A stretch of 64,000 bases of DNA from Nitrospirota bacterium (GTDB lineage Bacteria; Nitrospirota; UBA9217). The stretch spans positions 31,178 to 95,177 of the forward strand of contig JAKAHZ010000001.1 of the NCBI GenBank assembly GCA_021814615.1, written 5' to 3'. Below the pieces are notes generated by a model. It was not told where the DNA came from. It saw nothing but the letters and a program-made list of their open reading frames with translations, and ran no database searches. Shown one piece after another: positions 7,218 through 59,705 of this stretch (position 1 is its first letter; each line of letters starts with the position of its first letter). A program made the position numbers and the translations under genes.

Positions 7218-7305
7218 GACTCACCGTCCTTTCCATCTTTCTCGACCAAGACATGACTGTTTCCCTTCGTGATCTTCGTGTCCTTCGTGGTAAATCCGTC
7301 CAGAC

Positions 7306-8376: not shown

Positions 8377-8476
8377 GTATCTGTTCCTCGTGTGGGCCAT
8401 CGGAAACGCGTGCATGGCTGTCCGCGTCTTACCGGGAAGATATCCTCCGCTGAGAGACTGCGGAATGTTGATGGAC

Positions 8477-8578
8477 TAAACCTATCACGGAGACAGGGAG
8501 ACCCAGAGAAAAGCAATTTGCATATATGATGATTTATTCAGTGTCCTCAGTGTCTCCGTGGTGATAATCGACTTTTCG
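8477..8578. repeat. ~95-nt hairpin element (copy 1 of 2); inverted repeat cacggagacag.../...ctcagtgtctccgtg
   Basis: Near-identical copy at 59603-59705; long imperfect stem flanking an ~60-nt AT-richer loop containing 'gcaatttgcatatatgatgat'. Confidence 0.7.
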
Positions 8579-8685
8579 ACTTCACCCAGGTTGGACGGAA
8601 AAGAAGAGCAGGGTCCCGCGTTTCCGGCCCCTGCTCCTGATGGTGTTGCCGACCGGCAACAAGAGCGTCAGCTCTTTCAACCCTT

Positions 8686-11333: not shown

Positions 11334-11682
11334 TGCGAACTATTTGACAGGGATAATACGGATTGACGCAGATTGGCAAAAGTTTGGGTAGGTGCGGCTT
11401 TAGCCGCTCAAACACAGATCGAAACGAAACGAACGGCGAACTGGACACGGATGAACACGGATAAACACAGATTAAAGTGCTGAATAGGCCCTGGATATAG
11501 TAACGCCCTGGGCAGGGGCGGCTTCTGCCGCCCATGGAAAGCTGAAGCCTCCCGGTGTCAGAGCGATCACCCGCTAGTGTATCTGTCCCCGCTCTCTTCG
11601 CGAGAAGAGGTTCTCCGCGGAAGTGGTCCGCCTTTCTCTGCGCCCTGCGGCACTGCAAGAGATGCCTTTGCTTCCGACTGAA

Positions 11683-22751: not shown

Positions 22752-23196
22752 GATGGGAGCATTGTACTGATTCGCGAGTGGATTAGCAAGGCGGGCGATG
22801 GGGCTTGAACCGCGAAGAAAATGAAGGAGCGGATCAACAGCCTCTTACCGCGAAGGCGCAAAGGACGCGAAGAACTGCAGGTCTTCCGCCGTTTTTTCCG
22901 GTTTTACTCGCGTTCATCCGTGTTCATCCGCGTCCTATTGCTTTCTTCTGACGTTTATTCCGGTTTTTATCCGTGTCCATCCGTGTGCGTCCGTGTCCAA
23001 ATGATTTTAGTTTTATCCGCTCTTATCCGCGTTCATCCGCGTCCAAACTAATGGGATCTGTGTTTCGGCTTTTGCGCTCTCTCTGTGCTCTCTGTGTCCT
23101 CTGTGGCAAATTCCGTAGTTGTTTGTTTTGATCCGCGTTCATCGGCGTCCCAAGCCGACTTTGAGTCCTCGCGTCTTCGTGGTAAAGGAGTTGGTT

Positions 23197-23375
23197 CCTC
23201 ACCTTTCTTGCGTGCCCAAGAAAGGTTGAGCCAAAGAAGGGCACCCGGCGATCATTCTGATCCGTCATGCTCGGTCGTCCTCAGGGCATTTCGGAAACTC
23301 GCCCTGCGGGCTTCGGACATCCGAAATGCTTTTCCTTCGGACTCTGTCGCCTGACGGGAATAATCGCATGGGAAC
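23197..23375. repeat. Copy 2 of ~150-170 bp structured intergenic repeat family
   Basis: Aligns with 30348-30520 and reverse complement of 5530-5702. Confidence 0.7.
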
Positions 23376-23593
23376 GGTAGTCAACGGCAAAGGCTCGTCG
23401 TTGGCTGGATTGATCCGCCGTTATCCGCATTCATCCGCGTCCAAAAATCTTCCTGTTTTTTCGTATCTCTGTTTTGTTTTCCCTCTGTGCTCTCTGTGTC
23501 CTCTGTGGCAAATTCCGTAGTTGTTTGTTTTGATCCGCGTTCATCCGCGGCCCAAGCCGACTTTGCGTCTTCGCGTCTTCGTGGCAACGTTCT

Positions 23594-29100: not shown

Positions 29101-29559
29101 AATCAGAGATGAGTAAGAGCAATAAAAGGCTTGTCTCGCGCAGAGCCGCGGAGACCGCAGAGAACGGCTAGAACCAGAGACGAGAGTCAAAAGATTCTGT
29201 TTAGCTACTATTTATCCGTGCCCTCCATGTTGATCCGTGTCCAATCTTTAATCCGAATTTATCCGCGTTCATCCGCGTCCCAATAGTACTTCTTCGAGTC
29301 TTAGCGTCTTCGCGGCAAAATCTTTTCCTCTCGCAGAGACGCAGAGGAGCAGCGAAAAGCTAAGGATTGGCTCTTGCAAAGACGCAAAGGCGCGAAGAAA
29401 AGCAGCGGCTAAATCCGGGACGACGATCTAAAGACCTCATCCGTGTTCATCTGTGTTGATCCGTGTCCGATCTCTAATCCGAATTTATCCGCGTTCATCC
29501 GCGTCCCACTGGCTCTTCTTCGCGTCTTTTGGTGTCTTTGTGGCAAAGGTTTTTGATTC

Positions 29560-30261
29560 TCACTCAAAATAATTGAACTTCACGATGGCCCAGAGGGCCG
29601 AGAACCCGTCCTTCCACCCGATCTTCTTTCCTTCTTTATAGGACCGCCCGCCGTAGGAGATGCCGATCTCATAGAGCCGGTACCGCCCCCGGGCAACACG
29701 CGCCGTGATCTCGGGTTCGATGGCGAATCTATTCGAGACGAGCTTGGGCGCGATTTCCTGCAGCGCCTTCTTCGTGAACATCTTGTAACACGTTTCCATG
29801 TCGGTAAGATAGAGGTTCGTGAAGGCGTTGGAAAAGGCGGTGAGGAACTTGTTCCCGAGATAGTGCCAGAACCGCAGAACCGCGTGCGGCCTGCCGCTCA
29901 TGAACCGCGACCCGTAGACCACTTCGGCCTTGCCGTCCAGGATCGGCTTGAGCAGGTCGGAAAACTCAGCCGGATCGTATTCCATGTCGGCGTCCTGGAT
30001 CACGATATAGTCGCCTGTCGCCGCCGCAAACCCCGTCCGTACCGCAGCGCCCTTCCCGCGGTTTTTCTCGTGAAAGATGACGCGGAGCGGCGGCTGGAGC
30101 TTGGCGAGATACTCCCGCGTGCCGTCCCGGGACCCGTCGTCCACCAGGATGATCTCCTTCTCGATGCCCGCCGGCAGCGGCGCATCGACCACGCGTTTCA
30201 GGCTCTGTTCGATGGTGCGGATCTCGTTGTACACCGGCATGACGACGGTCAGAACGGCCAT
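29560..30261 (-). CDS. Glycosyltransferase family 2 (polyprenyl-phosphate sugar synthase-like)
   Basis: 'VVMPVYNE', 'LVDDGSRDGT', 'IQDADMEYDP' GT-A DxD motifs. Confidence 0.8.
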   Translation of the reverse strand: MAVLTVVMPVYNEIRTIEQSLKRVVDAPLPAGIEKEIILVDDGSRDGTREYLAKLQPPLRVIFHEKNRGKGAAVRTGFAAATGDYIVIQDADMEYDPAEFSDLLKPILDGKAEVVYGSRFMSGRPHAVLRFWHYLGNKFLTAFSNAFTNLYLTDMETCYKMFTKKALQEIAPKLVSNRFAIEPEITARVARGRYRLYEIGISYGGRSYKEGKKIGWKDGFSALWAIVKFNYFE

Positions 30262-30520: not shown

Positions 30521-30672
30521 AGGGGGGGCAGGCAAAACCTTAATAACTGTTACTCAGCATGTTCCCGGAACGTTTTCTACGCGCCTTTGCGTCGCTGCGA
30601 CAAAACAAGCTTTGCTTGTCTAGCTGTTCTCCGCGCCCTCTGCGGCTCTGCGGGAACATGCCCTGGCATTGC

Positions 30673-33974: not shown

Positions 33975-34287
33975 GGTAAAATCACCTTTGCCGCGAGGGC
34001 ACGAAGACACAAAGGAACGGCAGACAACCAAGATGCTATGACCTCAAAAAACGCTGCGCTTGAACTCGCCTTCCCCATGCGGAAAGGATTTTCGCGGGGT
34101 GCCCTTCTTTGGGTCACCTCTTCGTGTCATTGCGACTCGTGATAAACAGCATTTATATGATGAACTCGTAAAAAGGCTTTCGCCACAGAGGTCACCGAGG
34201 ACACAGAGAAAAATATCTTGTTTTATGAAGCATTATCTCTGTGATCTCTGTGTGCTCTGTGGCAGATTTTGACTTTCTACGATTCTG

Positions 34288-35934: not shown

Positions 35935-36102
35935 GGTATGGTTAGACCAGGATCATGTTCTCACGAAGCCGCAGAGACACGAAGATAGCCCTATACCCCT
36001 TTCGTCCTTCGTGCCACCCCGTGGACCCGATTTTACAGTGTGCCTTCCACGAAAGCTTAAGCTGCCTCGCCGTGTCTTCCAGTCGCCCGGTTGCCTTGTC
36101 GG

Positions 36103-43373: not shown

Positions 43374-43514
43374 AGTATCGTCGCGACCGCAAAGACACAA
43401 AGGCACTAAGCGTTCGAAGTATTCCTTCGTGTCTTAGTGCCTTGGCGGCCGGTCTTAATTGTGCAGCTTTCTTACTCCTGTCTACTGACTTCTGTCTCCT
43501 GTGTTCTGTGCTTC

Positions 43515-45929: not shown

Positions 45930-46153
45930 TCAGGACTCCTTTTGCCGCTCTCGGCGCGGCCGGGGATCATACAGGGAGAACGAACTGCTCGATAATAGAC
46001 TCGCAAAAAAAATCTATTTAGCCACAGAGGTCACAGAGAACTCAGAGAAACAATTTCAATCTCTAAAGATCTACCTCTGTGCTCTCTGTGCGCTCTGTGG
46101 CAGCTCTTGACGTATTACGATTTTCATCAATCGATGAAACCACTCCACTGCCG

Positions 46154-47023: not shown

Positions 47024-47175
47024 AGGCCGTTCCTCCGGATGCGTATTCTAGGGAAACAGGTGGTAAAAGTCAATGATCAGAACAAAACCTGCCACGAGGG
47101 CGCTAAGGCACGAAGGGATGCCTGCATTCCATGTCTTCACGCCTTCGAGTCTTTGCGGCAAAAAAGCCGCGGCGA

Positions 47176-48597
47176 TTACTTCGGCATCGGCACGCTGCCG
47201 AGCAGGTACTTCAGGTCGTCGTCGTCGAACTTGAGGCCCGCGCCGATAAAGGCCGCGCGCCGGTCCACGTTCAGGATGTTATCGTAGCCCGCGTTCACGA
47301 AGAACAGCTTGTTGATGCTCCACGTCGCCGTGGCCTTCGCGTGGGCGTGCTCGTTCCTCGGCTCCTTGCTGTTGAAGTTCCAGGCGTCGACGCTGAACTT
47401 CACCCGGTCGTCGAAGGCATAGAAGTCGGTGCCGACGCCGCCCTGGGACTCGATCAGGCCCATGCGGAGCGCCAGGTTGCCCCAGCGCTTGGCGAATTCG
47501 AGGCTGAAGAGCAGCTTGTCCTCGTAGGACTCGGTCACGACCGTTCCGCCCGGCGGCGTGGTCACCGTCTCGACGCGCTTGTACTTGGCGAAGGGATCGG
47601 AGACGATCTCCGCGATGTAGTACTGGTCGGGCCGGGGCTTCAACTCCAGCGTGAAGTAGCTCTTCGAGTCGGGGAACATATATTCGCTCCGGAAGGCAAT
47701 GGTCGTCTTCAGCCGCTCCACCCGGCCGACATAGTCGCTCAGGCCCTTGGCCGCGGAATCGATGTTGTTGTACATGCTGTCGTCGGATACGAGCTTGCCG
47801 ATCGTGCCCTCGCCGCGATCGATCCGCTTCGTCACGTTCTCGATGGACGCCAGCGCCAGCTCGGCGTTCTTCGACGCCTCGCGCACGTTCTCCAGCGTCA
47901 TCTTCAGGTTGTCCCGGTTGTCCTCCACCACGGCATTCAGGTTCAGCGCCAGCTCGTTCAGCCGCGTAACGAGCTCGCTGCCGTCGCCGCGCAGCGCGTA
48001 GGAGAACTCCCGGATGTTCGACGTGGTCTGGCGCAGGTCAGCCAGGATGTCCTCGAGCGAGCGTTCGCCCTTCTGGCTGCCGAAAACGTTCCGGAGCGAC
48101 GTGGTCACCTGCTTGATGTCGTCGGCGATCGACGAGAGCTTGCTGATCAGCTGGTCCGCGTCGCTGGCAGCCAGGGTCTGCTCCATGCGGTCGCCGTCTC
48201 GGTAGAATCCCTGTTTTCCCGCTGCCGCCGGAGCGCCTTCGCGGGTCGTGAGCTGCGTTGCCGGGACGATGTCCACGTACTTGTCGCCCAGAAGGCCCAT
48301 GGTCTTGACCGCGGCCTCGGACCCGCGCAGGATCTTCACGTCGGGATTGATCCGGAGCACGAGTTTCGCCCGGCTGTCGTCGAGCGTCACCGCCTCCACC
48401 GTGCCGATCTGCACGCCCGCCATACGCACCGCGGCCTTGGCATCGAGGCCGGCGACGGAATCGAAGACCGCGGTCAAGCGGTATCCCTTCGCCTGCCCGA
48501 ACTCGAACTTGCCTACCACCATGGTCATCCAGAGCAGGATGACGGAACTGCCCAGGACCAGCAGGCCGACCTTTGCTTCCGCAGTTAGCTTCGCCAT
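47176..48597 (-). CDS. mlaD: MlaD/MCE-domain protein (long form)
   Basis: N-terminal TM + MCE domain; last gene of mlaFED-like operon. Confidence 0.75.
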   Translation of the reverse strand: MAKLTAEAKVGLLVLGSSVILLWMTMVVGKFEFGQAKGYRLTAVFDSVAGLDAKAAVRMAGVQIGTVEAVTLDDSRAKLVLRINPDVKILRGSEAAVKTMGLLGDKYVDIVPATQLTTREGAPAAAGKQGFYRDGDRMEQTLAASDADQLISKLSSIADDIKQVTTSLRNVFGSQKGERSLEDILADLRQTTSNIREFSYALRGDGSELVTRLNELALNLNAVVEDNRDNLKMTLENVREASKNAELALASIENVTKRIDRGEGTIGKLVSDDSMYNNIDSAAKGLSDYVGRVERLKTTIAFRSEYMFPDSKSYFTLELKPRPDQYYIAEIVSDPFAKYKRVETVTTPPGGTVVTESYEDKLLFSLEFAKRWGNLALRMGLIESQGGVGTDFYAFDDRVKFSVDAWNFNSKEPRNEHAHAKATATWSINKLFFVNAGYDNILNVDRRAAFIGAGLKFDDDDLKYLLGSVPMPK

Positions 48598-48658
48598 GAA
48601 CTCTCCGTCAACTAAGACTGGTTCTTTGTACTCGGTACGTTGTACTCAGTACTGTTCT

Positions 48659-49417
48659 TCATTCCGCCGTAATCGGCCCCACCGCGCTGCCGGTGATGAA
48701 CTGCTTCACAATCGGGTTCGTCGTATTCTTTATATCGTCGGGCGTCCCCGTCTCGAGGATCTCGCCCTTGTACAGCATGGCGATCCGGTCCGAGATCTTG
48801 TAGGCGCTGTGCATGTCGTGGGTGATGGCAACGGACGTGACGCCCAGTTTCTTCCGGAGATCGACGATCAGATCGTTGATCGCGTCGGCCGTGATCGGGT
48901 CCAGGCCCGTGGTGGGCTCGTCGTAGAGGATAATCTCCGCATCCATGGCGATGGCCCGCGCCAGGCCCACGCGCTTCCGCATGCCGCCCGACAGGTCCAC
49001 GGGCATCTTGTCCTCAACGTTCTTCAGGCCCACGAGCGCCAGTTTCTCGGTCGCGATCTTCCGTATCTCCCGGTCCGACAGCTTCGTATGCTGCTTCAGT
49101 CCGAAGCCCACATTCTCCCAGACCGGGAGCGAATCGAAGAGCGCGGCCATCTGGAAGAGCATGCCGAACTTCTTCCGCACCTCGTTCAACTGCTGGGCGT
49201 CCAGGTTGTTCAGCACCTGGCCGGCGACCTTCACCTGGCCCCGGTCGGGAAAGAGCAGCCCGATGATGTGCTTGATCAGCACGCTCTTGCCGCTGCCGCT
49301 ACCGCCGATCACGGTCACGCTCTCGCCCTTGCTGACCGCGAGATTCACGCCGCGCAGCACCTGCAGGCTCCCGAAGCTCTTGAAGAGGTCCGTTATCTCG
49401 ATCATCGTCTCGGGCAT
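48659..49417 (-). CDS. mlaF: ABC transporter ATP-binding protein MlaF
   Basis: Walker A 'GGSGSGKS', ABC signature 'LSGGMRKRV', Walker B 'ILYDEPT'. Confidence 0.85.
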   Translation of the reverse strand: MPETMIEITDLFKSFGSLQVLRGVNLAVSKGESVTVIGGSGSGKSVLIKHIIGLLFPDRGQVKVAGQVLNNLDAQQLNEVRKKFGMLFQMAALFDSLPVWENVGFGLKQHTKLSDREIRKIATEKLALVGLKNVEDKMPVDLSGGMRKRVGLARAIAMDAEIILYDEPTTGLDPITADAINDLIVDLRKKLGVTSVAITHDMHSAYKISDRIAMLYKGEILETGTPDDIKNTTNPIVKQFITGSAVGPITAE

Positions 49418-49421
49418 GGCC

Positions 49422-50194
49422 TCACCACAGGAGCGCGGACAGGAAATAGTCCAGGATCAGGATCAGCATGCACGAAACGACGACCGCGCCCGTCGTGGCC
49501 TTGCCCACGCCCTCGGCGCCGCCTTCGGTGTTGAACCCCTTGTAGCAGCCGATCAGGCCGACCACGGCGCCGAAGACCAGGGACTTGATCAGGCCGTACC
49601 AGATGTCCTGCACTTCGGTATTGTTGATGCTCTGGTTCATGTAGGTGACGGGATTCGTGCCCAGCACCTTGACGCCCACGAAGTAGCCGCCCGCGATGCC
49701 GACGAACATGCCCGTGGCCGACAGAAAGAACATCATGATCGTGCTCGCCAGGAACCGCGGGACCACGAGGTACTTCATGGGATTCGTGGCCAGCGTATAG
49801 AGCGCGTCGATCTGCTCGGTCACGCGCATGGTGCCCAGCTCGGCGGCCATGGCCGCTCCCGCCCTGCCCGCCACCATAAGGCCCGTGAGCACCGGCCCGA
49901 GTTCCCGGGTCATGGAGAGCGACACCACCGCGCCGATCAGGGACTGGGCGCCGAAACGCTTGAATCCCGTGTAGCTCTGGAGCGCGAGCACCATGCCCGT
50001 GGAGATGGCGGTGGTGAGCACCACGGGGACGGAGTTCACGCCGATCTGCTCCATCTGCTTCAGCAGGTTCTTGAGATAGAAGGGACTGCTGACGGTCCAG
50101 CGGAGCGTCTGGCCGAAAAAAAGGAGGACAGCCCCCATCTCCCGGATGAAGTTCCCCGCCTTCCGACCGATCAGTTCAAGCCAGGTAGTCATAA
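49422..50194 (-). CDS. mlaE: ABC transporter permease MlaE
   Basis: Aligns to E. coli MlaE from N-terminus; ATG 50194 preferred over TTG 50213. Confidence 0.8.
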
Positions 50195-50264
50195 AGATCA
50201 GTACTGAGTACAAAGTACAGAGTACAGAGTGTAATCAAAATCATATCTCCTAGTCCGGGTTTTT

Positions 50265-50327
50265 GGTACTTGGTACTTGGTACTTGGTACTTGGTACTTG
50301 GTACTTGGTACTTGGTACTTGGTACTT
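50265..50327. repeat. Perfect heptanucleotide microsatellite (GGTACTT)x9
   Basis: Nine uninterrupted 7-mers directly upstream of mla operon and overlapping alr stop codon. Confidence 0.95.
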
Positions 50328-51498
50328 AATTTACGATCCTCGGCACCCTCGCCGAGATGGCGCAGAGCACTTCGTAGGGGATCGTGCCGGTTGTTTCGGC
50401 GATGTCCTGCGCGGTGATGCGTTCCGCGCCCTGGCTCCCGATCAGCACGACGTCGTCGCCTGCTGAAACGCCCGGCACGTCCGTCACATCGAGCATGGTC
50501 ATGTCCATGCAGACCCTGCCGGCAACAGAAACGCGCCTGCCCCGTACCAGGGCACGGCCTGTGTTCGAGAGCAGCCGGTTGAACCCGTCGGCATAACCGA
50601 TGGGGATCGTGGCGATCAGGCTCTCCCGCCTCGTTACGAAGGTCCTGCCGTAGCTGATCGGCACCCCCGCCGGTACGCGTTTCACATGCGCGATCCGTGT
50701 TGCCAGCGAAAGCACGGGCCGGAGCTCGGCTGCGCTTCCGCCTTCCAGGGGATTATACCCGTACAACATAAGGCCGGGCCGCACCATGGTCAGGTGCGCC
50801 CGGTCGTAATCGAGCACTGCCGCGCTGTTGGCCGCGTGCCGAAGCGGCACGGCGATCCCCCGGCGTTCGAGGGCGGCGATCAGGGACGAGAACCGCTCGA
50901 GTTGCCGTCCGGCGAACTCCTTGTCCCGGAGATCGGCATCGGCAAAATGGGTCATCAGCCCTTCGACGGCGATGCCGGGGAGATTCGCAAGCCCGCTTAT
51001 GAACTCCACCGCTTCCTCGGGAACGAGCCCGATCCTGCCCATGCCCGTATCGATTTTTACATGGACCGCGATCTTCTTGCCCGCGTCCTGGGCTGCTTCG
51101 GATAACGCCCGCGCAACGGGCAGGGAGAAGACCACAGGCGTCAGGCCCGTGTCCACAACCGCGGGCGCCTGCTCCGGGAAGATCGGCCCCATGATCAGCA
51201 CCGGCGCGGGTATGCCGCTCGCGCGGAGCTCACGCCCTTCCTCCACGAGCGCAACGCCAAGCATCGGAACACCCAGTTCCACCAACCGCTTCGCCACGGG
51301 AACGGCGCCGTGGCCGTAGGCCTGCGCCTTTACCACCGCCAGCACCTTCCTGCCTCCGATACGCGAAACGACCTGACCGAGGTTGTGAGCCAGGGCGGTC
51401 AGGTCGATCCTCGCGGCCGTGGGCCGGCCGGCCGGCGATGAGGAAGCGCCGGCTGGGGACGAACAGGCGTCCGTTCCCTCAGTGGATGGTGCTCTCAT
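50326..51498 (-). CDS. alr: Alanine racemase
   Basis: PLP Lys 'VLAVVKAQAYGHGA' and C-terminal Alr motifs; N-terminal low-complexity extension so start uncertain. Confidence 0.85.
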   Translation of the reverse strand: MRAPSTEGTDACSSPAGASSSPAGRPTAARIDLTALAHNLGQVVSRIGGRKVLAVVKAQAYGHGAVPVAKRLVELGVPMLGVALVEEGRELRASGIPAPVLIMGPIFPEQAPAVVDTGLTPVVFSLPVARALSEAAQDAGKKIAVHVKIDTGMGRIGLVPEEAVEFISGLANLPGIAVEGLMTHFADADLRDKEFAGRQLERFSSLIAALERRGIAVPLRHAANSAAVLDYDRAHLTMVRPGLMLYGYNPLEGGSAAELRPVLSLATRIAHVKRVPAGVPISYGRTFVTRRESLIATIPIGYADGFNRLLSNTGRALVRGRRVSVAGRVCMDMTMLDVTDVPGVSAGDDVVLIGSQGAERITAQDIAETTGTIPYEVLCAISARVPRIVN

Positions 51499-51673
51499 TC
51501 ATTTCCTCAAACGTGTCCGTGGCAGGCAGGACATCGATCTTGTCGAACGACTGGGCGCAGTCCATGCATTCCCAGTGGTGAATGGTCCAGTACTCGGTCT
51601 CCAGTTCGAGCCCGAAATCATCGTCCTGGAAGAGGTTCGTTCCTCCGCAGAACGGGCACATGATCGGTTCCAT
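51479..51673 (-). CDS. Small zinc-ribbon protein (CxxC...CxxC)
   Basis: 'CPFCGG' and 'CMDCAQ' pairs; RBS GGAGG 6 nt upstream; overlaps alr start by 20 nt. Confidence 0.5.
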   Translation of the reverse strand: MEPIMCPFCGGTNLFQDDDFGLELETEYWTIHHWECMDCAQSFDKIDVLPATDTFEEMNESTIH

Positions 51674-51875
51674 AACAGCCTCCGCTGTTCATCCGGAACA
51701 CTGCCATCCAAGATGAAAATGCGCGGATAAACAGATAGTTCTCAGGTGGGATAAATCTATCACAGAGGGGTGCTTTTTGCAAAACTATTTTGGTCCTCGT
51801 TCAAGCGGAAGAGAGCTGTCTGAGCGGATACAATTGTTTTGACAGCCTTTCCCGTTCTCTTTATAATCAACACCT

Positions 51876-52882: not shown

Positions 52883-54022
52883 ATGAAGTTCAAAGTTCAA
52901 AGTTCAGAGTTCAAGAGTCCTCTCTCCTGGACTGCCCTCTGCATCTCCGCTTGCCTCCTATTGTTCGCGACAGCCGCCCGTGCCGAGATCAAGGTCATCG
53001 AGGCGGATGCTGCCTATGCCATGGGCGACAACGACAGCAAGGTGGATGCCCGGAGGATCGCGACGCAGGAGGCGAAGCGCAAGGCCCTGGAGCAGGCGGG
53101 AACTTACGTTGCCAGCCTCACCCAGGTGAAGGAATACCGGCTCACGAAGGATGAGGTGACGGCTTATACCGCGGGCATTCTGGAAACAGACATTATTGCC
53201 GACGAGTCGCGGGGATCAGCGTCAAAGCCCGAGCTCTATATTAAGGTACGCTGCAAGATCGACACTGCCGTGCTCCTGGCGCAGATCGATCAATACCGGG
53301 AAAACGAGGAGCTCCGGGACCAGATCGAGGATGCCGCGAAACAGCAGGCTGAGCTCAAGAAGGAGCGGGACGAACTGGTACGGCAGCTTGCAGCGGAAAA
53401 AGACAAGGCCAAGGCAGCTGAGACGCAGAAGAAACTTGCGAACGTCCTCACGAGTGAAGAAACGGGCGAACAGACGAACCGCGCCTGGGCACGAACCGCC
53501 AGCCAGGTTGACCTCTACAGCGGGAGCGAAGTGAACCGCGGCGTCAAGCTCGCCGACCTGGAAGATTCCGCCGATGCGCTCGAACAGACAGTGCAGACGA
53601 ACCCGGGGAACGTGCAGTCAGCGGTGCTGCTTTCCGCCCTTTATGAACAGAAGGACGACCGGAAGCGTGCCGAAGAAGTCCTGCGCTCGGCAATCAGCCG
53701 CAACCCCGGCAATCCCTTTCTGCATCTCCGGCTCGGCATCGTGCTGCGGGAGCAGGGAAGAAATACCGAGGCCTTGAAGGAATTCCGGGTCATGGAACAG
53801 AAGCGGCCCAACCAGCCGAACCTGCTCTTCCAGCTGGGGCTCACGCACAAGGCGAACGGCAACTGCCGCCTGGCGTCGGGATACATGAAACGGTTCCTGA
53901 TGTACACCAAACGGATCGACAAGCCGCGCATCAACGCGCTCAAGCCCAAGGCCCGGGAGATCGTGGAGAAGTGCGGCGATTTCCCGCCCGAGCGGAGGGC
54001 CCGAAAACATTCCCGGCCGTAA
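52883..54022 (+). CDS. Secreted coiled-coil/TPR-repeat protein; 5' coding region contains (AGTTCAA)x4 heptamer repeat
   Basis: Signal peptide 'ALCISACLLLFATAARA'; coiled-coil K/E-rich middle; TPR-like C-terminus; tandem 7-mers at 52887-52914. Confidence 0.6.
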   Translation: MKFKVQSSEFKSPLSWTALCISACLLLFATAARAEIKVIEADAAYAMGDNDSKVDARRIATQEAKRKALEQAGTYVASLTQVKEYRLTKDEVTAYTAGILETDIIADESRGSASKPELYIKVRCKIDTAVLLAQIDQYRENEELRDQIEDAAKQQAELKKERDELVRQLAAEKDKAKAAETQKKLANVLTSEETGEQTNRAWARTASQVDLYSGSEVNRGVKLADLEDSADALEQTVQTNPGNVQSAVLLSALYEQKDDRKRAEEVLRSAISRNPGNPFLHLRLGIVLREQGRNTEALKEFRVMEQKRPNQPNLLFQLGLTHKANGNCRLASGYMKRFLMYTKRIDKPRINALKPKAREIVEKCGDFPPERRARKHSRP

Positions 54023-54226
54023 GAAAGGCCTTGCTCACCACGAAGAACACGACGGAATGAGATATTCCTCGCTTGCGGGATTTTCTTCGTGCCCTTCGCG
54101 TCCTTCGTGGTTCAAAGATCGTAATTCCGGCGATATTATGTTTTATCCAAGATGTGCTTCGTGCGCTTCGTGTCCTTCGTGGTTAATGGTTTTGCTTCAG
54201 TCCGAGATATTACTTAGGATGACCAC

Positions 54227-54982: not shown

Positions 54983-54987
54983 GATTG

Positions 54988-55036
54988 GCTGTCATTGCGA
55001 GGAGCGTAAGCGACGAAGCAATCTCGTAGTTGATTA
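54988..55036. repeat. Left inverted repeat of GIY-YIG mini-element
   Basis: 'ggctgtcattgcgag...gcgacgaagcaatctcgtagttgatt' is the reverse complement of 55320-55360; third direct copy at 55401-55452. Confidence 0.75.
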
Positions 55037-55323
55037 TGGAAAGACACTATTACGTTTACATCATGACGAATCCGACGCGAACTGTTCTGTACACGGGTGT
55101 GACAAATGATCTTCAGAAACGCGTTTTCCAGCATAAAGAAAAAACGGTCCCGGGATTTACCGAAAGATATAATCTCAACAAACTTGTTTTCTTTGAAACA
55201 ACTCCGGACGTGAAAAGCGCCATCCTACGCGAGAAGCAAATCAAAGGCGGTTCCCGAGCGAAGAAGATCGCACTCGTCGAGGCGATGAATCCCAAGTGGA
55301 ACGACCTCTACGAAACACTCTAA
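55036..55323 (+). CDS. GIY-YIG nuclease family protein (small stand-alone type)
   Basis: 'YYVYIMTN...VLYTGVTNDLQKRVFQH' GIY-YIG motif with catalytic Arg/Glu context. Confidence 0.8.
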   Translation: MERHYYVYIMTNPTRTVLYTGVTNDLQKRVFQHKEKTVPGFTERYNLNKLVFFETTPDVKSAILREKQIKGGSRAKKIALVEAMNPKWNDLYETL

Positions 55324-55360
55324 CTACGAGATTGCTTCGCTTCGCTCGCAATGACAGCCT
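55320..55360. repeat. Right inverted repeat of GIY-YIG mini-element
   Basis: Reverse complement of 54988-55036. Confidence 0.75.
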
Positions 55361-55466
55361 TTTGTTCACGCCGAATCGCCTGATTTGTCATCTTTTATTT
55401 GTCATTGCGAGGAGTGTTCTTTGCGACGAAGCAATCTCGTAGTTGATTTTCGATTCTGACTTTTGA

Positions 55467-58450: not shown

Positions 58451-58726
58451 GTCAACGTTCTCACCGCGAAAGCGCCAAGAACGCGGAGAAATAGATTCAA
58501 TACGGGAATCATTCTCGCACAGAGACGCAGAGAAAGACAATTCTAAAGCAATGTGATTTCGCGCAAAGCACGCTAAGAGCGCAAAGGACAGAAGGATACA
58601 ATTAAACGCTGAAAAAGCTATGAGCAGATCTATGCTGTTCGCCGATAAATCAATATTAGGATTCTTCATAAGTCCTCGGCGTCGATCAGCGTTGAATTAA
58701 CCTGATTTCTTGGCGTCCTTCGCGTC

Positions 58727-59602: not shown

Positions 59603-59705
59603 AAACCTACTACTGAGACACGGAGACACAGAGAAAAGCAATTTGCATACATGATGATGTTTCAGTGTCCTCAGTGTCTCCGTGGTGATAATCGACTTTT
59701 TTACG
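59603..59705. repeat. ~95-nt hairpin element (copy 2 of 2)
   Basis: Matches 8477-8578; inverted repeat 'cacggagacacagag...ctcagtgtctccgtg'. Confidence 0.7.

Follow-up and report, generated by a model that had tools for sequence, protein, structure and literature searches.

To our knowledge, almost none of the intergenic heptamer repeats has a demonstrated function, and the hairpin in the 5′ untranslated region (5′-UTR) of the hmw genes, together with RNase III, is the one worked example. At hmw1A, the (AUCUUUC)n tract is transcribed in the 5′-UTR, forms the left arm of a long imperfect hairpin and is processed by RNase III (PMC12721329). The stems made by the terminal inverted repeats of intervening sequences (IVS) are also substrates of RNase III and are cut (PMC4990558). 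Geobacter metallireducens carries paired "class 2" sites (TCTCCGTS[Y]x3) as well as paired heptanucleotide sites (MTYCTGA x5), one example being the pair that separates proB from proA (PMC2700814). A role in translation has been proposed for the TAACTGA repeats of marine Beggiatoaceae and the contiguous heptamers of cyanobacteria (PMC4679880; bioRxiv 10.1101/2022.06.06.494920). Here we describe a perfect nine-unit heptamer tract that lies between alr and mlaE in a 64,000-nucleotide stretch (called the window here) of an uncultured Nitrospirota bacterium of the UBA9217 lineage (assembly GCA_021814615.1, contig JAKAHZ010000001.1, positions 31,178 to 95,177). The element joins three known kinds: heptamer repeat hairpins, IVS-like arms and paired repeats of the Geobacter type. 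The explanation that we favour, tentatively and with somewhat less than even confidence, is that slippage expanded the tract, which would form the 5′ arm of a hairpin-type, IVS-like element between cistrons that acts on the operon mRNA.

The tract, which we call arm 1 (50265..50327, minus strand), reads (AAGTACC)x9 on the coding strand, equivalent to (GGTACTT)x9 on the plus strand, and is followed by AAAAACC. An earlier note on this DNA had reported a perfect 63-nt array between alr and mlaE, and Tandem Repeats Finder (TRF) confirmed it (50263-50327, period 7, 9.3 copies, 100% matches, score 130). We counted 13 copies of GGTACTT across the window, where 1.66 would be expected, and nine of them stand side by side at 50265-50327. 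Unit 1 overlaps the TAA that ends alr (50328-50326): its first two bases are also the final two of this stop codon. The second array, arm A (50191..50229, minus strand), is made of four inverted GTAC heptads and GATCTTTAT, and it extends to the "AT" of the mlaE ATG. TRF detects its heptads at 50200-50230 (period 7, 4.4 copies, 87% matches, (AGTACAG)-type). The imperfect array that the same note had seen by the mlaE start is thus real, and its heptads stop 7 nt short of the ATG (50192). A loop of 35 nt (50230..50264, minus strand) separates the two arms. On the coding strand, the whole spacer runs from the end of alr (…RIVN-TAA) through GTACC(AAGTACC)8 and AAAAACCCGGACTAGGAGATATGATTTTGATTACACT into CTGTACT, CTGTACT, TTGTACT, CAGTACT and GATCTTT, and then reaches the ATG of mlaE. 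The third array, arm B (48624..48662, minus strand), occupies the mlaF-mlaD spacer and reads ATGAAGAAC AGTACTG AGTACAA CGTACCG AGTACAA AG. Its four GTAC cores are at exact 7-nt spacing (48628-48652). Arm B begins on the mlaF stop codon (TGA, 48661-48659; A-TGA-AGAAC) and ends 26 nt before the mlaD ATG (48597).

The heptads are concentrated in this operon to a degree that chance does not reproduce. All 14 matches of the window to GTACNNNGTAC (GTAC-N3-GTAC) fall inside the three arrays; 0.06 matches are expected, and none of 100 shuffles reached 14. The approximately 50 other intergenic regions of this DNA contained no GTAC heptads. Both degenerate arms, A and B, have invariant GTAC cores (32 of 32 positions) and variable linkers. 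Arms A and B form an inverted repeat of 39 nt with 87% complementarity, 1528 nt apart, that brackets mlaE and mlaF. This pair ranks first among all inverted repeats within 4 kb across the window, and its complementarity does not end with the heptads but takes in the regions of the mlaF stop and the mlaE start. The "gtact" words that the earlier note had pointed out at the mlaF-mlaD junction are therefore genuine; what it missed is that they are the inverted copy of arm A. Arm B is also a direct repeat of arm 1, with 77% identity and a common boundary, …GTAC(C/A)AA(A/G)AACC (family D1). Judged from this shared boundary, arm 1 and arm B are direct paralogues. The perfection of arm 1, set against the degeneracy of its sister arms, implies recent slippage. 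The simplest history would start from an older, degenerate arm resembling arm B, in which one AAGTACC unit was expanded by slippage to the perfect nine-unit microsatellite. Avoidance or enrichment of GTAC through restriction-modification was considered and rejected, as the word is found 131 times outside the arrays against 127 expected.

The spacer RNA (161 nt) has a predicted local fold of −39.7 kcal mol−1, compared with −30.2 ± 4.0 kcal mol−1 for its shuffles (z = −2.4, and −2.7 in a repeat run). In the predicted minimum-energy fold, units 1-4 of arm 1 pair with the four GUACU units of arm A, giving 5-bp helices with 2x2 loops between them. The basal helix of this fold joins the last alr codons (UCGUAAA) to UUUAUGA, which includes the mlaE AUG. 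The predicted duplex of arm 1 with arm A amounts to −32.9 kcal mol−1, and that of arm A with arm B to −50.7 kcal mol−1. When the 76 nt upstream of mlaE were paired with the mlaF-mlaD spacer of this organism, the duplex had z = −7.3 against shuffles. The spacer was also folded as single-stranded DNA; a cruciform was rejected, with z = −0.45 and thus no better than shuffles. An Rfam scan of 46-54 kb returned sub-threshold miRNA-like matches only, which merely reflect the hairpin potential.

The tract sits in a co-directional string of five genes on the minus strand. These are a zinc-ribbon open reading frame (ORF) (51479..51673; 64 aa, CPFC...CMDC), alr for alanine racemase (50326..51498; 390 aa, Pfam PF01168 and PF00842), the permease gene mlaE (49422..50192; 256 aa, PF02405), the ABC ATPase gene mlaF (48659..49417; 252 aa, PF00005), and mlaD, which encodes an MlaD/MCE-domain protein with a long helical extension (47176..48597; 473 aa, PF02470, with precomputed matches to PF28544 and PF27164). 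"mlaFED", the name the operon had been given, is only loosely right, the order being mlaE-mlaF-mlaD; the nine-unit array does lie directly upstream of mlaE. The zinc-ribbon ORF looks conserved, has a good GGAGG Shine–Dalgarno (SD) sequence and overlaps the alr start with its last 20 nt. Gene callers report it in all assemblies, and it is probably the first cistron. The mlaF start lies 4 nt after the mlaE stop codon. Apart from the spacers, the tight packing of the genes suggests translational coupling. A consensus scan for sigma-70-type promoters and for intrinsic terminators found neither in the alr-mlaE spacer. Because the alr-mlaE-mlaF-mlaD order is conserved in relatives and the spacer has no such promoter or terminator, the tract, which lies between the alr stop codon and the mlaE start codon, is most probably carried between two cistrons on a single transcript rather than being part of a promoter. 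At this position a 7-nt unit cannot switch a reading frame. The nearby perfect TTGACA-17-TATAAT promoter (51839-51867, plus strand; region to 51876) belongs to gpsA and ends 8 nt before the gpsA ATG (51876); the gpsA mRNA is probably leaderless.

The mlaE ATG at 50192 is backed by gene calls in independent assemblies and by the N-termini of homologues (MNYWLEL). The 25 nt that precede it lack an SD-like motif, in line with the earlier note. The lack of an SD sequence does not make this start special, since 4 of 12 neighbouring genes also have none; the mlaD ATG (48597) has its own, GGAGAG. The loop between arms 1 and A contains an SD-like AGGAG (50251-50247) and the start of a putative small ORF of 22 codons, MILITLCTLYFVLSTDLYDYLA*. 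This frame would start at ATG 50244 or TTG 50238, cross arm A and stop at 50176, 14 nt beyond the mlaE ATG. The AGGAG is too close to the ATG and approximately 7 nt from the TTG. One assembly (L211; numbers with L denote contigs in our comparison) carries the coding-strand substitution A>C at 50241, by which Ile would become Leu. The small ORF was reported by no gene caller; it is real as sequence, and we keep it as a possibility.

To place the heptads in a wider context, JGI metagenomes were scanned for at least five GTAC cores at 7-nt spacing. The scan returned at least 120 contigs with GC contents from 0.31 to 0.73. Among the matches listed, the dominant unit is AGTACYN, and the CAA-linker class of the window appears 13 times. 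In many of these arrays, GTAC is kept and the linkers vary, and most arrays look intergenic. The units also grade into neighbouring ones, from GGTGTTT to GGTATTT to GGTACTT in L101, and with GGTGCTT flanking GGTACTT in L174. There was no association with mla genes among the matches listed, where generic ABC ATPase matches were the only ones. The distance from an array to the ends of flanking ORFs was discarded as a measure, because units with TGA or TAG make array edges trivially the ends of stop-free stretches.

What the metagenome arrays do accompany is a gene of the PF05635/TIGR02436 family, named "23S rRNA intervening-sequence protein", a four-helix-bundle, Avd-like protein. Such a gene stands beside the array in 10 of the 120 listed contigs; among the matches listed, 11 of the 12 PF05635/TIGR02436 ORFs in 634 kb are within 600 nt of an array. 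Inverted GTAC arms bracket the gene in five of these (L135, L150, L168, L176 and L193), and L095 is a genuine 23S rRNA IVS with GTAC arms. PF05635 genes fetched by protein homology alone (L212-L221) have the same inverted arms. Here, the 5′ arm starts on the stop codon of the upstream gene (gacTAGTACcctGTAC...) and the 3′ arm stops approximately 7-20 nt before the next ATG (...GGTACtattttATG), without an SD sequence; the same layout from stop codon to start codon is seen in L135 and L168. Contigs in which inverted GTAC-type arms bracket a PF05635 gene include L095, L099, L135, L150, L168, L176, L193, L197 and L212-L221. Within each cassette the arms are complementary, and between orthologous cassettes their linkers differ. 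Duplexes between cognate flanks have a mean of −76 kcal mol−1, compared with −59 kcal mol−1 for non-cognate ones. The alr-mlaE spacer has the same stop-to-start layout as these cassettes, with a loop of just 35 nt. We also noted that a 32-nt heptad arm, CCACTGGTTACTCAGTACCGGGTACTGGGTAC, lies in opposite orientations in the 3′ flank of the PF05635 gene at the orthologous loci L212 and L219; small heptad arms can apparently invert. In the searchable literature we found no description of a link between PF05635 genes and heptad arms, and no relevant paper on the exact heptamers (AAGTACC, GGTACTT, AGTACTG and others).

In the explanation that we favour, the spacer would be transcribed together with the operon. 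Arm A could then pair either locally with arm 1 (approximately −33 to −40 kcal mol−1) or at long range with arm B (approximately −51 kcal mol−1, a near-continuous 39 bp). Either pairing would hide the mlaE initiation region and would make double-stranded RNA of the kind cut by RNase III. Through occlusion or coupling of translation, together with processing of the mRNA, the element may set the amount of MlaEF relative to Alr and MlaD. The spacing and the number of registers in which pairing is possible would depend on how many units the perfect arm has, so that the effect would be graded, unlike that of a promoter flipped on or off. The perfect array itself would have been born by replication slippage of one unit within the older degenerate arm.

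The relatives of the bacterium show how far this element extends. We fetched 14 Nitrospirota relatives with 49-73% identity in Alr. By tblastn, mlaE follows alr in 11 of the 14, and the full alr-mlaE-mlaF-mlaD string is present in 10. The two genes alr and mlaE abut or overlap in five relatives; others have spacers of 90-300 nt with unrelated sequence, one of them with a terminator-like hairpin. Three or more GTAC heptads were found at none of 80 related loci. In a database of 5.8 billion proteins, nothing falls between 100% and approximately 75% identity to the Alr of the window. On these comparisons the arrays are lineage-specific, and there is no sister species in which covariation of the window arms could be followed. 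An ancestral regulatory structure was rejected, as conserved spacer structure and long-range pairing are absent in the relatives.

Several of these observations, and others, speak against the element that we propose. Relatives carry the same operon without the arrays, without a conserved spacer structure and without long-range complementarity; in nine of them, the duplex between the region upstream of mlaE and the mlaF-mlaD spacer has z = −1.3 to +1.0. It follows that the operon can do without the element, which might be selfish or neutral. Only 4 of the 9 units pair in the local hairpin, whose z-score is modest; repeats of GTAC always outfold their shuffles because the core is palindromic. 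Moreover, the linkers of arm 1 (CA) are not complementary to those of arm A. Translating ribosomes would disrupt mRNA pairing over 1.5 kb. The palindromic core fits recognition by a dimeric DNA-binding protein equally well. The whole case for co-transcription consists of gene order and the absence of consensus signals in the sigma-70-type scan. Finally, tblastn and Pfam searches of the 64-kb window, the loop included, turned up no PF05635 gene.

The number of units was compared across assemblies, as the earlier note had proposed doing among strains. Eight contigs from ENA, NCBI and Logan assemblies encode an identical Alr, and 6 of the 8 span the tract; the window matches a contig of GCA_027348025.1. 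All six spanning assemblies have nine units, including L001 and L004, which carry a T>G substitution in unit 5 (AAGGACC). As six independent assemblies read through the tract, it is not an assembly artefact. Alignments of 2-13 kb among the assemblies contain no indels and, outside one patch in L004, 0-6 substitutions; outside this recombined patch the spanning assemblies are at least 99.95% identical. The patch, at 53266-53437 of the window, has 23 substitutions in 172 nt of a TPR gene, mostly at third codon positions, with L004 (GCA_027425575.1) near-identical elsewhere. It has the look of DNA brought in from a diverged strain by recombination. Over 13 kb, the sole difference that separates L001 from the window sits inside the tract. 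The Logan contigs L007 and L008 end inside the repeat, as short-k-mer contigs do. Assembly breaks as a sign of length heterogeneity were rejected, since the break in ERZ27237541 coincides with the A>C single-nucleotide polymorphism (SNP) in the loop. The fixed nine units argue against hypermutability weakly, to a moderate and not decisive extent, because the populations are almost clonal and the sequences are consensus sequences.

The alternative that survives best is that the arrays are selfish or neutral DNA: a decayed, "empty" heptad-armed cassette or local inverted duplications, with the nine-fold repeat arising from ordinary slippage of a simple sequence repeat (SSR) in a tolerant spacer and with no regulatory role beyond an incidental one. 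We regard this as possible, if rather unlikely. The absence of arrays from all 80 related loci fits it, and so do the unrelated and variable spacers of the relatives, the missing cargo gene in the loop and the way in which metagenomic GTAC units drift into and out of neighbouring units. The genome is full of other intergenic repeat hairpins, and heptanucleotides are reported to be the most abundant class of long prokaryotic SSRs (Mrazek 2007, as summarised in PMC4679880). Harder to reconcile with neutrality is the placement of three arrays in the two spacers of one operon, with none in the other intergenic regions of the window. The complementarity of arms A and B reaches beyond the heptads to the mlaF stop and the mlaE start, the cores are invariant while the linkers vary, and the length of the array is identical in all assemblies, the substitution variant included. 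If the element should be inert, the locus still documents the birth of a microsatellite from a degenerate repeat arm.

A broader proposal goes beyond this operon, and we consider it unlikely as a whole. GTAC-type heptad arms would mark a widespread, undescribed family of IVS-like cassettes that normally carry an Avd-like PF05635 gene, insert precisely between a stop and a start codon and also into 23S rRNA, and are dealt with as RNA, by pairing of their arms and by RNase III; an empty cassette and a solo arm would here bracket mlaE and mlaF. If true, a housekeeping lipid-transport module would be processed in the manner of an rRNA IVS, with one arm secondarily grown into a mutable nine-unit tuning microsatellite. 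The bracketing of PF05635 genes by inverted arms offers a concrete hypothesis for heptamer repeats, namely that they are stem-forming arms of selfish, RNA-processed cassettes. In our view, this possible general link of heptad repeats with PF05635 cassettes is the most interesting aspect of the locus.

The arrays might instead be binding sites. A dimeric DNA-binding protein or an oligomeric RNA-binding protein would recognise the GTAC core at 7-nt spacing, possibly bridging the three arrays, much as at tandem met boxes, at the proposed "global regulator" sites of Geobacter or in the case of the proposed TAACTGA binders; an Avd-like PF05635 protein encoded elsewhere is a candidate. The conserved part is exactly the palindrome, with linkers and orientation free, and GTAC arms co-occur with PF05635 genes. 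Related proposals exist: tandem 7-9-mers on opposite strands in G. metallireducens, one of them between proB and proA, were proposed as IHF/HU-type sites (PMC2700814), and heptamers by starts without an SD sequence as sites for S1, Csp or CsrA-like proteins (PMC4679880). Three observations make such a site quite unlikely here. Neither the operon nor the window has a candidate regulator gene, and the 64 kb hold no PF05635 gene. A regulon-type motif should recur, and none of the approximately 50 intergenic regions has it. The covariation of linkers between cassette arms favours pairing over simple site recognition.

The earlier note had suggested a contingency locus: copy number would change frequently by strand slippage, and mla expression would be switched or tuned as a result. 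Part of this stands. The array is perfect and, at 63 nt, long enough to slip, with a perfection that implies recent slippage; it lies upstream of an envelope-related operon; and the one difference between the window and L001 falls inside it. Tuning by heptamers also has a precedent, the (ATCTTTC)n tract of Haemophilus influenzae hmw1A, which tunes expression from the 5′-UTR (PMC12721329), and the TTTTGAT heptads of Vibrio cholerae ctxAB are likewise reported to vary in number. Phase variation as such is unproven and is disfavoured by the population data, with nine units in every spanning assembly and no indels. In one sample the loop SNP, and not a mixture of lengths, accounts for the assembly break. 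The consensus scan placed no promoter beside the tract, neither promoter spacing nor a reading frame is affected, and its position is intercistronic in a conserved housekeeping operon. We consider frequent switching improbable. A DNA inversion switch, in which the 39-bp inverted repeat recombines and flips the 1.5-kb segment with mlaE and mlaF, can be set aside as highly improbable: the repeat is the best of the window and brackets two genes, and a heptad arm does occur in both orientations at L212 and L219, but all assemblies have a single orientation here, no recombinase is found among the 13 genes called within approximately 6 kb, and the invertons that we know of flank promoters and not whole transporter genes.

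The window contains other repeats as well. In many of its intergenic regions there are three tandem 9-10-mers that have a YTYNGYG core (CTCTGTG, CTTCGTG, ATCCGTG and so on) and end in ...GTGG(C/T)AA. This triple-array pattern has 11 matches in the window and none in shuffles. The arrays often come as inverted pairs that would form hairpins with paired cores and mismatched linkers. Arrays of this type were located at 7264-7292, 8470-8600, 11445-11472, 22900-23590, 29136-29560, 34184-34262, 35960-36010, 43390-43510, 46020-46105, 47090-47165, 54040-54190, 58460-58726 and 59610-59700, and the same architecture is found at loci of Desulfobacterota, NC10 and Acidobacteriota (L034, L069 and L079). 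The GTAC arrays resemble these elements in their conserved cores, free linkers and inverted pairing; core and period differ. Two of the elements, at 8470-8600 and 59610-59700, are near-identical copies of one hairpin (…GAGACACAGAGAAAAGCAATTTGCATA…TTCAGTGTCCTCAGTGTCTCCGTGGTGATAATCGACTTTT) at distant loci, which suggests dispersal like that of a miniature transposable element. Inverted CGCAGAG-type arrays lie 1.4 kb apart at 29136-29172 and 30619-30655 (37 nt, 84% complementary) and at 29354-29401 and 30573-30620. They bracket a gene for a family-2 glycosyltransferase (29560-30261), a layout like that of arms A and B around mlaE and mlaF. A gene-free region of 842 nt (22752-23593) is dense in tandem TTATCCGYG and TCATCCGYG 10-mers and duplicated CTCTGTG hairpin units; its TTATCC words are reminiscent of DnaA boxes. 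The (AAGTTCA)x4 array at 52886-52914 falls within codons 2-10 of a TPR lipoprotein gene (MKFKVQSSEFKSPLSWTALCISAC...), where the gain or loss of one unit would shift the frame; no length variation was found among the assemblies. A small GIY-YIG nuclease gene (55030-55323) stands between inverted copies of GTCATTGCGAGGAGCG..GCGACGAAGCAATCTCGTAG (54983-55029, 55324-55362 and 55400-55442).

Among the described systems, three share single features with the tract and differ from it in others. Like phase-variable SSR loci, it is a perfect tandem repeat (9 units, 63 nt) near an envelope-related gene; unlike them, it has no detected copy-number polymorphism and lies in a housekeeping operon of an uncultured bacterium that is known from metagenome assemblies only. 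It differs from invertons in its one orientation in all assemblies and in the lack of a recombinase among the called neighbours. The TAACTGA and cyanobacterial repeats are short heptamer arrays directly upstream of start codons without an SD sequence, and arm A is such an array. Theirs recur at many loci, have one fixed unit and are mostly unpaired, whereas the unit here (AAGTACC / NGTACNN) has a palindromic core, is paired in inverted orientation and, across the window, occurs in one operon only.

The paired sites of Geobacter are closer. They consist of three to five tandem 7-9-mers that are paired on opposite strands at variable distance, also inside operons, and the arrays described here have this form. 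The 9-10-mer hairpin elements of the window closely resemble class 2 (TCTCCGTS[Y]x3). The GTAC heptads have another core and, within the 64 kb, occur in this operon only, whereas the Geobacter families are multicopy genome-wide; the function of the Geobacter sites is hypothesised. With IVS and PF05635 cassettes the locus shares complementary terminal arms that run from a stop codon (the TAA in unit 1) to an ATG (arm A). It differs from them in its loop of 35 nt without a PF05635 gene, in a better-matched arm pair that brackets the resident mlaE and mlaF and not a cargo, and in the expansion of one arm to a nine-unit microsatellite.

The nearest likeness is to hmw1A and hmw2A. In both cases a tandem heptamer lies upstream of a start codon, and the proposed action is post-transcriptional. 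The hmw repeats form the left arm of a hairpin whose right arm stands just before the gene; here a hairpin of this kind is predicted, with 4 of the 9 units paired and the linkers mismatched. The hmw tracts belong to a monocistronic 5′-UTR with its own promoter, and expression depends on their copy number, which ranges widely (at least 11 units); the tract of the window lies between two cistrons, and every sample has nine units. Here the right arm, too, consists of heptads, and cleavage by RNase III is proposed by analogy. The locus would show an hmw-like logic, a repeat arm pairing with an arm at the start codon, in a housekeeping envelope operon of an uncultured bacterium. It adds a second and, by the predicted energies, much stronger partner arm 1.5 kb downstream, which would pair at long range and brackets two cistrons.

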